Shown one piece after another: positions 16,299 to 47,749 of a DNA stretch of 64,000 bases. Positions within the stretch are counted from its first letter, which is position 1. Every line of letters begins with the position of its first letter. A program made the translations under genes and the position numbers. The notes beneath the pieces were generated by a model, which was not told the origin of the DNA, made no database searches, and saw only the letters and a list, made by a program, of their open reading frames with translations. Location: assembly GCA_000165345.1 (NCBI GenBank), contig CM000430.1:96001-160000 (forward strand). Reading direction: 5' to 3'.

Positions 16299-16981
16299 AT
16301 GGTAAGTTATCTACAGATCAAAATTTTCTAAAAAAATGATTAACGCTTTTCCATTAAAATATTTAGTCTATTATGACTTATAATGGTGGTGCCATTTTGG
16401 CAATGAAGGGAAAAGAGTGTGTTGCATTTGCAACAGATATGAGACTTGGATCTAATGGATACAGAACTATAAGTACTGATTTTGATAAAGTTATTAGACC
16501 AAGCTCAAAAACATTGATGGGATTTTCAGGTTTAGCTACTGATATTCACACTCTAACAAACTTAATCAAATTTAAAACAAACTTGTATCATTTAAGGGAA
16601 GAAAGAGAAATTGGTGTTAAAGCACTTAGCCATATGACAGCTTCAATATTATATAGTAAACGTTTCAGTCCATATTTTGTGGAACCAATTGTAGCAGGTC
16701 TTGATAATAATAATGTGCCTTTTATTGCTGGGTATGATCTTATTGGATGCTTATCAGTATGTAGCGAATTTGCAATTTCCGGAACCGCTGATAATCAACT
16801 TTTTGGTATCTGTGAATCATACTATAGACCTGATTTAGAACCTGATGAACTTATGGAAATCGTCTCACAATGTATGCTTTCCGGTATAGATAGAGATGCA
16901 TTTTCTGGATGGGGTTGCAAAGTTTATCTACTTACTCCTGAAAAGCTCGTCACCAAAACTTTAAAATCAAGAATGGATTAA
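16299..16981 (+). CDS. PSMB3: Proteasome subunit beta type-3, two exons: join(16299..16301,16367..16981), 65-nt intron
   Basis: The track ORF (16373..16981) begins MTYNGGAILAMKGKECVAFATD… The open frame continues 6 nt upstream to S-I, preceded by TTTAG. An ATG at 16299 is immediately followed by GTAAGTT. Splicing ATG|GTAAGT…ATTTAG|TCT ATT ATG ACT gives MSIMTYNGGAILAMKGKECVAF, which matches the human PSMB3 N-terminus [22 protein letters not shown]. The C-terminus (…TKTLKSRMD) also matches (…TRTLKARMD). Confidence 0.8.
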
Positions 16982-43269: not shown

Positions 43270-44103
43270 TTAATTCTTGAAGATCTTTGTCATCCTCCTG
43301 AGAGCTGAAGAAACCAAATGCACTGGAGTCCTAATTAAATCGCCAATCGCTCCTCCGTTAGTGGTTCCATGATCTGATTCAGCATCATTTGCAGCCATTA
43401 ATGATGAAATTGGTGTTGATGAGTAAGAAAGTCTTGAAGTTCTTGTAGGAGTTCTTAAGCTTGAATCACCTCCATTCTTTGCATCAACTTTCATTGAATT
43501 CTTTCTTGCTGTTAAGGAAGTTGCTGAAGCTGGTAGTTTTTTTAGTTTAGAAGATGATGATGAAGTCTTTGACTTGGGCTTTGTTGCCTTTTCAGTGGAA
43601 GCTGACTTCTTTTCCTTACTATTAGCCTTCGATATCTTGTTTTCCTTTAAATTACTCTCTGGTTTCTTTTTTTTATTTCCGGTTGATATTTCCTTAACAA
43701 TATTGTCCAAAATCTTGTTTTTTGCAACTTCACTCTTTGTGACCTTCTTAGTACTTGATGAGACACCCTTCTTAACTATTTCACTGATAGCTTTGGCTTC
43801 TGATCCCTTTGATTTAATTATCTTGTGATTCAGAATTTCTCCTCCCTTTTTGCTTGTCTTGCTAATTGTCTTCTTAACTACAGGTTTTACGGTTCCCTGC
43901 TCTTTTTTAATAGGATGCGAATTTGAAGCCTTAGTCGTTGCTATTGATGATTTTGACAACGAGCTTTTGCGAGACTTTGAAGATGATAAAGAAGTTGATT
44001 TTGGGGTTTCCTTCTTTACTGAAATCTTACTAGACTTTGAATTACAGCTCTTGGAAGCAGTTTTGCAGATAGACTTCTTTGAATCTGTTGAGCAACCACT
44101 CAT
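43270..44103 (-). CDS. Highly basic Lys/Ser-rich low-complexity protein (possible nuclear/nucleolar protein)
   Basis: ATG at 44103. 277 aa, about 40% K+S, with KK(V/I)TKSE-type repeats. No motif I recognise. The promoter box TTTGCATGCAAA…TTTGGCGCCCGACTGTGGGCGCGC (44695..44737) lies ~600 nt upstream. Confidence 0.45.
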   Translation of the reverse strand: MSGCSTDSKKSICKTASKSCNSKSSKISVKKETPKSTSLSSSKSRKSSLSKSSIATTKASNSHPIKKEQGTVKPVVKKTISKTSKKGGEILNHKIIKSKGSEAKAISEIVKKGVSSSTKKVTKSEVAKNKILDNIVKEISTGNKKKKPESNLKENKISKANSKEKKSASTEKATKPKSKTSSSSSKLKKLPASATSLTARKNSMKVDAKNGGDSSLRTPTRTSRLSYSSTPISSLMAANDAESDHGTTNGGAIGDLIRTPVHLVSSALRRMTKIFKN

Positions 44104-45402
44104 CTAAAATCAAAAAATCATAAATAATATTGTATAAAATCGTTTAATTTCGTATTATTAAAAATAAATATTTTAGTTAATTTGTTATTTAATTATTGAA
44201 TAAATTTATAAAGGCAATAATTCAGAGACTTTCTCAAATTTCTTTATTCAGCTTATCTTTTCCTCCCCTCATTTTTTTGTAGGCTATAATTAGCTTTAAA
44301 AGTCAATTAAATCTGAAGAATTATCACTCATACCATCATGATATAATTTGATGTCAAAATTTTCTAGAAGCATCAACCCCACACCTGTATGTCATAGATA
44401 TTCGCAATTTATTCCCTTCATCTCCCTCCACTCCATCCCTTCTTCTTTGTAACCAAATCATCAAAGTCTCATTATTTGCCTTTCTATTGACTTACCTTTG
44501 ATCCACAAGCTTTTACTGAAGAACTTCCTTTCTTAGTGCAAGCCATTCTTAACTGATAAAAGTTTATCTTTTTTCCTTGTTAATTAAAAATCTATAATTG
44601 GTTTCCCCCAATCCCTTAAATATATTAATACTTGAAATTTAATCGTATTTACTACTTGTTCTGTTTAGTATTCGTGTATTAATTTAAAATTAATTTGCAT
44701 GCAAATAAATACATTTGGCGCCCGACTGTGGGCGCGCATTTTGATCTTCAAGTGGTTAACCACAGTAACATGGCATTAAGTGTATAAATTAAGTTAATAA
44801 GGAAGAATGTGAGCACTAAAAAAAAGATATATTGGGAGAGATGATTTTTTTTTTTTTTTTTAAATCACTCAAGGTCCCAACCCACATTTGAATGTAATAC
44901 AACTCAGTCAAAATAAATCAATAGAGCACTCCTTTCTTTTTTCTTAGATATATTTTTGTGAATTTTTTCATCGACCCTTTGATAGTAAAATTTGTTTCAA
45001 TAACTCTATCATCAAGAGATGTCAACTTTGATCAAATGTAAGATGTAATACAAATGTTTAGTTTTTCGCTATCGTGGCTAATACATAGGAATTGTGAATG
45101 ATAGGCTTTTTAATTAAACGAAAACGTAATATTTAAAACAAGTATAATCAATTTATTAAGAGAGGAACTATTTAAAAGCTGTAACTTTTATCTATTACTA
45201 ACTTGTGGTTGTAGCTTCTTTTGAATAATACCTTCCATCAAAGTTGAAAAATCCAATCATAATTCACTTAAATTAAGCAAAGAAGAAAAGATCTTCGACA
45301 TGTGGAAATATACATATCCGTTACTAATTTAAAGTAAGTGTTTACGCTCGGTGAATTACAAGCTAAACCGGCTGATTATTCCCTACCTCTGATTCATTAC
45401 GC

Positions 45403-45706
45403 TTATCCCATGATCTTTTCCTTAAACTTTCCGAGAATATGAAGTACAATAACTATTGACATGTATGCCAAAGTCATTACGAGAACAGTCATTGGCCCAA
45501 GCTTGAGTCCTGGTGTATCATCAACGTAGTAACTCATCAAATTTTGAGCGAGGTTCTCTCTGCTGCTAGTTACAGAAGATGCCAATGCACGGCGTTGTCT
45601 AATTTATAGAAAGAAAAAAGTGAATAAAGATTCTCACATCCTATTATTTCTTAGCTTACCTCATTGTACTTGATCTTGCAATAGAACCTTTTCCTGCTGC
45701 TCCCAT
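45403..45706 (-). CDS. SEC61B: Sec61 translocon beta subunit, two exons: complement(join(45403..45598,45660..45706)), 61-nt intron
   Basis: The track ORF (45403..45585) starts at TTG; its frame stays open upstream through …IRQRRA. The C-terminus MSYYVDDTPGLKLGPMTVLVMTLAYMSIVIVLHILGKFK matches Sec61β (…[39 protein letters not shown]). Upstream, CCAATATGGGAGCAGCAGGAAAAGGTTCTATTGCAAGATCAAGTACAATGAG|GTAAGC … TTCTTTCTATAAATTAG|A joins in phase 2. The product is an 80-aa protein, MGAAGKGSIARSSTMRQRRALASS…, the right size for Sec61β/Sbh1. Confidence 0.7.
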
Positions 45707-46235
45707 ATTGGATGAGCTTCCTGTTGATTGCGTTGAATTCTTTGTCTAAAAGAATAAGATGATTAATTTAAATATGAACTCTAAATAAGTTTATCATTTC
45801 GAGTTTAATAAACGAAGAGAACCTCCTTTGAAAATAGAATCTCTCCTATATGGAAATAATCCCAGCTAATATACTCGAAAAGATATAAAGATAAATATTC
45901 AAATGACTTACCATCTCTAATTCAATAAAATCTAAACGTTCTTAAAATTCCAAAGAATAAAATATTAGTTTTACTTTCTTTTAATTTTTCTTTTTTTTCC
46001 CCAATTTATTGAGCTTTATCCAGATATGGTAAAATATCTTTTCCCCTCTTATAACTCTATGTTTTTTTATTTTTGTCAATACACTCAAAAATTGAGTGAG
46101 TCTTGCGGTACCTCTTCAATTAATTAATTATTTCTTTATATGAATATACTATATAGTTATTAAGTTACCTTATTTAAATTTTTTTTATTCAAATACCCCC
46201 ACTATTCACTTTCCCGCTACACTTACCCTGAATTT

Positions 46236-46333
46236 ACCGCCAAATTGCAAAACATTAAAATTTCGAAATATCCCATTAATCGAAATAGGAAATAATGACG
46301 ATAAAAATGCAGGCCCCACAGTTTTGGCGGCAC
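46236..46333. promoter_or_regulatory. TTCCCGC, TACCGCCAAATTG and GTTTTGGCGGCAC E2F-like boxes in the head-to-head spacer between the Sec61-beta and Kir-like genes
   Basis: Sequence motifs. They lie 200-300 nt upstream of the Kir ATG (46544) and ~550 nt upstream of the Sec61β ATG. Confidence 0.4.
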
Positions 46334-46543: not shown

Positions 46544-47749
46544 ATGAACATTGAACTTTCCAAGCCTTTATTAAAAACATACACTCAGGATCAAATGTAT
46601 TACAATAGTAAAAAAAATCAAATAAGTGATACTAGTAGTAATCAAAGCTATGAGAGCCCTGATTTAAGTGACCGAATTGAAACAAAAGCATCCGACTTCA
46701 TTTCATATAGCAACAGAAATCCTCCGAATATACTAATGGAAAATGGAACCTTAAATATAATGCATCACTGGGATAGACTCAGCCAATTCTTTGAATTTTG
46801 TTTACACGACAGATTCCATGTTATGCTTTCAATGAGTTGGGGAAGTCTTATTTTATTTATATTTCTCGTATATATTCTACTTGCAATTATCCTAGCAATA
46901 ATACATTTTATTATTACATTTGGTGATGCTGCTAATTGTATTGGGAGCGATAAATTTGGGAATATAGAATATTTTTTCTTTGCTGTTGAAACTATGTTTA
47001 GTATTGGCTACGGTTCCCCAAGATCACCATGTTGCTTAATTACCAACTACTTTACTTCAATTACGGTTATTAGTGGTTGCATCTTGAATTCAGTTACTGT
47101 TGGAATATTCTTTACAAAATTTTCAGAATCAACTTCTAGAAAATGGTCAATTTGTTTCTCCAAAGAACTTTGTGGAATTGGATTTAAAAGTATAACTCCT
47201 GAAGAAGTACTTGAAGTACCTAATCAATCAAACTTACCACCTATCACTTCATATGCCTTTACTAAGGCAGCTGAAACCACCTGTGAGAATTGTCCATTCA
47301 TTATTTCATTCAGACTTTTTAATATCTCTCAAGAACCATTTTTTTCGCCTGATCTTAAAATTTTCATTCTTATCCACGGTGACAACGGCCCATATATCAC
47401 AGAAATTTCATCATACAAACTTGATGTTCCTCTAGAATTTATGGAAACTCCTATCACTGTTTCGATATACTCAAACCAGCCTGACTCCCCTCTTAAAAAC
47501 TTTACTATTAATCATCTTAGAAATCAAGGGCATCTCATTGAACTCATGATATTGCTACGCTTCTCTGATAACAGAACATCAAAGAATTTGGAGGTCAGGA
47601 AGACCTGGAGACTTAATAATGTCTTCTGGGGATATAAATTTTCTTCTATTATTAAGAAACAAGTTTATCATGGCGGAACTATGTACAAAGTCGGAATTTC
47701 AGATCTCGATAACATTGAGCCTGTTATCTCCGGTACTCCATTTCTCTAA
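46544..47749 (+). CDS. Inward-rectifier potassium channel (Kir/IRK family)-like protein
   Basis: ATG 46544. 401 aa. Slide-helix-like HHWDRLSQFFEFCLHDRFHVMLSMSW. M1 is GSLILFIFLVYILLAIILAIIHFII. The pore helix and filter IEYFFFAVETMFSIGYGSP match KirBac1.1 FTDAFFFSVQTMATIGYGK and Kir2 FLFSIETQTTIGYG. M2 is ITNYFTSITVISGCILNSVTVGIFFTKF, followed by a basic SRKW stretch. A ~210-aa beta-rich cytoplasmic domain follows (ISFRLFNISQEPFFSPDLKIFILIHGDNGPY…). Confidence 0.6.
   Translation: MNIELSKPLLKTYTQDQMYYNSKKNQISDTSSNQSYESPDLSDRIETKASDFISYSNRNPPNILMENGTLNIMHHWDRLSQFFEFCLHDRFHVMLSMSWGSLILFIFLVYILLAIILAIIHFIITFGDAANCIGSDKFGNIEYFFFAVETMFSIGYGSPRSPCCLITNYFTSITVISGCILNSVTVGIFFTKFSESTSRKWSICFSKELCGIGFKSITPEEVLEVPNQSNLPPITSYAFTKAAETTCENCPFIISFRLFNISQEPFFSPDLKIFILIHGDNGPYITEISSYKLDVPLEFMETPITVSIYSNQPDSPLKNFTINHLRNQGHLIELMILLRFSDNRTSKNLEVRKTWRLNNVFWGYKFSSIIKKQVYHGGTMYKVGISDLDNIEPVISGTPFL

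Follow-up and report, generated by a model that had tools for sequence, protein, structure and literature searches.

The Sec61-beta locus of Cryptosporidium parvum chromosome 2

In the window, the whole 64,000-nt stretch of C. parvum chromosome 2 that was analyzed, the minus strand at 45403-45914 very probably carries a Sec61-beta (Sbh) gene with three coding exons, whose predicted product has 94 amino acids. Exon 1 (45912-45914) consists of the ATG alone, from which the deposited gene span of 512 nt starts, and is followed directly by the donor GTAAGT. Intron 1 (45746-45911; 166 nt, GC 25%) is of phase 0 and runs from GTAAGT to TTATTCTTTTAG; the context of its acceptor is TTATTCTTTTAG^ACAAAG (caret, splice junction), and the TAG of this acceptor bounds the frame of exon 2 upstream. 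Exon 2 (45660-45745; 86 nt) encodes TKNSTQSTGSSSNMGAAGKGSIARSSTM and contributes two nucleotides of the codon for R30. Intron 2 (45599-45659; 61 nt, GC 25%) is of phase 2 and runs from GTAAGC to TATAAATTAG. Exon 3 (45403-45598; 196 nt including the TAA stop at 45403-45405) encodes the remaining part of residue 30 and all residues up to 94. Both introns are of the GT-AG type, and the spliced coding sequence of 285 nt, which has no internal stop codon, is translated into MTKNSTQSTGSSSNMGAAGKGSIARSSTMRQRRALASSVTSSRENLAQNLMSYYVDDTPGLKLGPMTVLVMTLAYMSIVIVLHILGKFKEKIMG. The GC content of the exons is 41%, compared with the 25% of the introns, a difference in the same direction as the genome-wide values of C. 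parvum (exons, 32%; introns, 22%; PMC4637869). The GC content of the window (28%) agrees with the ~30% reported for the genome (PMC4637869).

Sec61-beta of C. parvum is an already known and annotated housekeeping gene. The 94-aa product was identical to QOY43173.1 (CPATCC_000889), WKS76355.1, and WRK30848.1, all of which are named "Protein transport Sec61-beta/Sbh [Cryptosporidium parvum]". The deposited CPATCC_000889 gene span of 512 nt corresponds to 45403-45914, and a 6512-nt region centred on the gene showed gap-free 100% identity with CP044421.1 (IOWA-ATCC) and CP029781.1 (chromosome 2). No difference was found between the window gene and CPATCC_000889 in locus, DNA, 512-nt span, or product. 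In a protein homology search, matches were obtained solely from Cryptosporidium, the closest being a 94-aa protein with 95% identity at 100% query coverage. All the contigs carrying the protein were genomic chromosomes or scaffolds, and a search of metagenome contigs for cDNA-like evidence, using the 27-mer that spans the exon 2-exon 3 junction, gave 0 matches.

The introns of the IOWA-ATCC annotation are described as 100% supported by RNA-seq (PMC8744675), a general statement in which the Sec61-beta gene is not named. In the 2015 re-annotation, the proportion of intron-containing genes of C. parvum rose from 4.3% to 10.8% (PMC4637869). The supplement of that study (Isaza 2015; PMC4637869) pairs cgd2_620 with CHUDEA2_620 at an identity of 0.989. 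The 94-aa proteins of C. parvum and C. hominis differ by a single substitution, V39A. Since 0.989 equals 93/94, as expected from this single difference, we infer that cgd2_620 is the Sec61-beta gene. Apparently, cgd2_620 is the same gene as CPATCC_000889, and the 94-aa model has been in place since at least 2015. No mention of cgd2_620 was found in the main texts of the literature, and a literature search combining Cryptosporidium with Sec61 retrieved nothing on this gene; one match concerned the host SEC61G.

Divergently from Sec61-beta, a gene on the plus strand (46544-47749) encodes a protein of 400/401 aa with a domain like the C-terminal domain of inward-rectifier K+ channels (PF17655, IRK_C), the match to PF01007 being weak. 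Downstream of Sec61-beta, the minus strand at 43270-44546 holds a gene for a 294-aa protein, whose span of 1277 nt implies ~390 nt of intronic sequence; no Pfam match was obtained for this protein. The order of the IRK_C-like gene, Sec61-beta, and the 294-aa gene is kept in every Cryptosporidium species compared.

Conservation of the exon-intron structure among Cryptosporidium species

We took the orthologous loci of chipmunk genotype I, C. canis, C. felis, C. xiaoi, C. ryanae, C. serpentis, and C. hominis, and compared the gene structure in seven species (C. parvum, chipmunk genotype I, C. canis, C. felis, C. xiaoi, C. ryanae, and C. serpentis), with the exon models of chipmunk genotype I and C. 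felis adjusted to the deposited gene starts. All seven shared a first donor of the form ATG^GTA(A/G/T)G, a phase-0 acceptor of intron 1 of the form AG^(A/T)C, an exon 2 of 83-89 nt ending in ATGAG^GT, and an intron 2 acceptor of the form AG^(A/G)CAACG. The coding sequence was divisible by three in each and gave a protein of 93-95 aa, which was the deposited protein in four species. The positions and phases of both introns were kept at lengths of 76-182 nt for intron 1 and 53-77 nt for intron 2. The exons of chipmunk genotype I shared 82-91% identity with those of C. parvum, and the introns 68-74%. The Cryptosporidium homologues start with MTKNSTQSTGSSSG(I/M/V)GAAGK....

The current records of Sec61-beta are correct for C. 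parvum, C. hominis, C. meleagridis, C. ubiquitum, C. felis, and C. ryanae. By the conserved three-exon structure, the deposits of C. canis, C. serpentis, and C. xiaoi appear to be mis-modelled. The C. canis model (locus L007, 1861-2387) is an unspliced ORF of 128 aa that passes through intron 2 in another frame; the C. serpentis model (L005, 1838-2265) takes as its start an ATG at the 3' end of exon 2 and gives 65 aa; and the C. xiaoi model (L006, 1976-2456) is a partial one of 106 aa, whose first exon lies inside intron 1 of its relatives. With the three-exon structure, complete proteins of 93, 94, and 95 aa were obtained for C. canis, C. serpentis, and C. xiaoi, respectively. An earlier note on this DNA had supposed that so small a gene would be hidden or mis-modelled in automated annotation; this does not apply to C. 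parvum, where it is annotated as CPATCC_000889, but does apply to the orthologues of these three species.

Intron 2 and the two-exon model

The earlier note had described Sec61-beta as a two-exon gene that starts at ATG 45706 and encodes 80 aa. Every sequence feature that it described was found at the coordinates given. The 60-aa ORF starting with TTG is present at 45403-45585 (minus strand), is merely part of the last exon, and has a frame that can be translated upstream via IRQRRA to a TAA. ATG 45706 opens a segment of 47 nt (45706-45660; MGAAGKGSIARSSTM plus AG), after which come the donor GTAAGC at 45659, the 61-nt intron (45659-45599), and the acceptor ...TCTATAAATTAG; the phase-2 join gives exactly the 243-nt coding sequence and 80-aa product that had been calculated. 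When the frame of the 47-nt segment was read without splicing, a stop followed right after ...STMR. The junction 45660/45598 is kept in the seven Cryptosporidium species and is part of the deposited gene models; since its phase and the GT..AG ends are conserved with it, the 61-nt intron is beyond chance.

The upstream end of that model could not be maintained. The frame of its "exon 1" remains open for 13 more codons upstream of ATG 45706 (TKNSTQSTGSSSN), up to the conserved acceptor of intron 1, and 166 nt upstream of this acceptor lies ATG^GTAAGT at 45914. When C. parvum was compared with chipmunk genotype I, these 13 codons showed five synonymous changes and one non-synonymous change, and five of the seven base differences fell on third positions; the comparison with C. 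felis gave five synonymous and four non-synonymous changes. By these alignments, the pattern of mostly synonymous change in the 13 codons is that of coding sequence. The 45706 Met is not conserved. Of the seven species, C. parvum and C. felis alone have ATG at this codon, and the other five have ATT, GTG, GTC, ATC, or CCA (Ile, Val, or Pro); beyond this set, Met is also found in C. hominis and C. meleagridis, and Ile in C. ubiquitum. Furthermore, the alignment with human SEC61B described below begins at residue 8 of the 94-aa protein and therefore includes residues upstream of the 45706 Met. An exact look-up in a collection of ~15 billion sequences found neither the 80-aa nor the 60-aa version, while the 94-aa sequence has been deposited several times. 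Although the splice arithmetic of the two-exon model is exact, its product contains the full Pfam domain, and ATG 45706 has the favourable bases A at -3 and G at +4, these observations make it very unlikely that an 80-aa Sec61-beta translated from ATG 45706 is the main product. The gene instead has three coding exons, as set out above: intron 1, right after the true ATG, had been overlooked; the start codon is at 45914; and the first 14 residues were missing from the two-exon model, whose product of 80 aa is in no record of the collection, the deposited C. parvum proteins having 94 aa. The 47-nt "exon 1" was correct at its donor end and wrong at its 5' end, being the last 47 nt of the 86-nt exon 2.

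The earlier note had also suggested a search of the 80-aa product against PF03911. This search confirmed the family (55.1 bits at residues 33-72) but not the splice, the 60-aa ORF alone scoring 56.1 bits. Because the PF03911 domain is encoded by the last exon alone, the Pfam check cannot separate the gene models; a domain match that falls wholly within one exon is no validation of a proposed splice.

The start codon at 45914 and its upstream region

ATG 45914 has an A at -3, and the closest ATG upstream of it is at -341. The 338 nt in between (45915-46252, minus strand) are presumed to comprise the 5' leader and promoter, the extent of which is a prediction; this stretch is 72% AT, contains conserved blocks, and is free of ATG, a condition that was reached in 0 of 2000 shuffles. 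Therefore, 45914 would be the first AUG of any transcript starting within that distance. Scanning ribosomes would be expected to use the AUG at 45914, as it would be the first in a leader that is ATG-free over at least 338 nt. In an upstream alignment of five species, a AGATTTTA block was invariant ~15-20 nt before the Sec61-beta ATG. The tryptic peptide NSTQSTGSSSNMGAAGK is specific to translation from 45914. A possible alternative acceptor 6 nt downstream of that of intron 1, ACAAAG^AAT, would likewise keep the frame.

Two palindromic blocks lie farther upstream on the same strand: GACTCACTCAATTTTTGAGTG at 46082-46102, ~170 nt upstream of the ATG, and AGATATTTTACCATATCT at 46022-46039, ~110 nt upstream and preceded by GAGGGG. 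Each occurs once in the window, and both are kept in C. parvum, C. hominis, chipmunk genotype I, C. canis, and C. felis; in the 46022-46039 block of C. felis, a paired A>G / T>C change preserves the palindrome. Neither Rfam at gathering cutoffs nor a search for tRNAs gave a match anywhere in the window, and the palindromes thus belong to no known RNA family. They could act as promoter elements or as hairpins in the 5'UTR. A further block, TTTGGCGG(T/G)AA at ~46200-46230 (minus strand), is kept in C. parvum, C. hominis, chipmunk genotype I, and C. canis, and C. felis has a partial version of it, GAGCGGTAA. This block is in the shared intergenic region, nearer to the IRK_C-like gene than to Sec61-beta, and may resemble the E2F-type sites reported upstream of Cryptosporidium genes.

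We also considered intron 1 as coding sequence and rejected this reading: read-through from 45914 stops after 22 codons, and the corresponding peptides are unconserved, ranging from 2 to >40 codons among the species. A related possibility is that both products are made, 94 aa from the fully spliced mRNA and a minor 80-aa form by leaky scanning or retention of intron 1. On the retention route, the AUG at 45914 would open a 22-codon upstream ORF, and translation would reinitiate at 45706; an internal transcription start would be another route. Leaky scanning or such a start might yield some 80-aa product in the four species that have this Met (C. parvum, C. hominis, C. meleagridis, and C. felis). 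The shortness of the ORF formed by read-through and the good context of ATG 45706 are in keeping with such a minor form, but the internal Met is unconserved across the genus and the read-through peptide varies in sequence as well as in length, and we regard it as extremely unlikely. An unspliced, prokaryote-style 60-aa gene from TTG 45585, which stands in a mechanical ORF list and carries the Pfam domain, can be dismissed: C. parvum is a eukaryote and TTG is not a usual start codon in eukaryotes, conservation of the frame extends past the TTG as far as the conserved acceptor upstream, and the 60-aa sequence is deposited nowhere in the collection.

Start-codon-only first exons

A second gene with a first coding exon that consists of the start codon alone was observed in the window. 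The proteasome beta gene at 16299-16981 (plus strand) begins with ATG^GTAAGT at 16299, followed by a 65-nt intron (16302-16366) ending in ...ATATTTAG and by exon 2 (16367-16981). Its product of 205 aa matches PF00227 with 145 bits and is identical to QOY43182.1 (CPATCC_000899). In other assemblies, the protein has 202 aa from an internal Met, and EAK88932.1 of the original Iowa II is a 204-aa "partial" protein that lacks the Met. Since this gene is annotated with 205, 202, or 204 aa depending on the assembly, an ATG-only start is modelled inconsistently.

Introns directly after the start codon occur in yeast ribosomal-protein genes and in other intron-poor protists. Sec61-beta shares with these genes the ATG-only first coding exon and the intron right after it, a likeness that is one of resemblance only; in C. 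parvum, introns are present in no more than ~11% of the genes (PMC4637869). Our literature search for genes with an intron directly after the ATG as a class in Cryptosporidium found nothing relevant. It is conceivable, though in our view unlikely, that the ATG-only exon, the long, conserved, ATG-free leader bearing the palindromes, and the genus-wide intron 1 in a genome otherwise poor in introns together form a regulatory module, acting through intron-dependent expression or an upstream ORF created by intron retention, and that genes with an intron directly after the ATG are systematically under-called in the annotations of Cryptosporidium. The latter idea comes from the fact that, for both examples in the window, the models differ from one assembly to another. 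First exons of this kind escape ORF-based gene callers and some ab initio ones, and the value of the present case is one of curation; Sec61-beta itself is a universal housekeeping subunit, and the biological significance is small.

The Sec61-beta protein and its relatives in other eukaryotes

The identification as a spliced eukaryotic Sec61-beta, which the earlier note had also reached, was upheld by domain and structure searches. PF03911 (Sec61_beta) matched residues 47-86 of the 94-aa protein (45430-45549, minus strand) over profile positions 2-41 of 41, with 55.1 bits against a gathering cutoff of 27 and an E value of 7.5e-15. When aligned to solved chains, residues 8-89 matched residues 10-94 of human SEC61B (2wwb_C, 96 aa; E=4.5e-12), and yeast Sbh1 and Seb2 matched with E values of 1.6e-5 and 0.0022, respectively. 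The length of 94 aa lies within the range of the Sec61-beta/Sbh family (~80-125 aa).

The N-terminal domain is rich in Ser, Gly, and Arg, and the N-terminal 60 residues are polar by hydropathy calculation. The best 19-aa Kyte-Doolittle window comprises residues 68-86 (mean 2.35), that is, the helix VLVMTLAYMSIVIVLHILG (45430-45486, minus strand) within the PF03911 domain, and an 8-residue tail, KFKEKIMG, follows it. This hydropathy calculation predicts a tail-anchored protein with one C-terminal helix, a short tail, and no signal peptide. The juxtamembrane motif DDTPGLKLGP fits (D/E)-D-(S/T)-P-G-L-K-(V/L)-x-P and aligns with the 10-residue motif of human SEC61B; the Cryptosporidium homologues show no variation at its D, D, T, P, G, K, G, and P. 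From what is established for the family, the Cryptosporidium protein would be inserted post-translationally as a tail-anchored protein with a cytosolic N-terminus, and would be the beta subunit of the protein-conducting Sec61 channel (translocon) of the ER, in association with Sec61-alpha and Sec61-gamma.

The 94-aa protein is similar in size to its counterparts in other eukaryotes, human and canine SEC61B and yeast Sbh1 and Sbh2 (2wwb_C, 6n3q_B, and 2ww9_C; 94 aa compared with 96 aa). It shares with them the disordered Ser/Gly/Arg-rich N-terminus on the cytosolic side, the ST(V/M)RQR(K/R) motif, the (D/E)D(S/T)PGLK(V/L)GP motif, the single C-terminal tail-anchor helix, and the short lumenal tail. 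In contrast, identity with these proteins is low outside the last ~40 residues, and the comparison of exons and introns applies within Cryptosporidium only.
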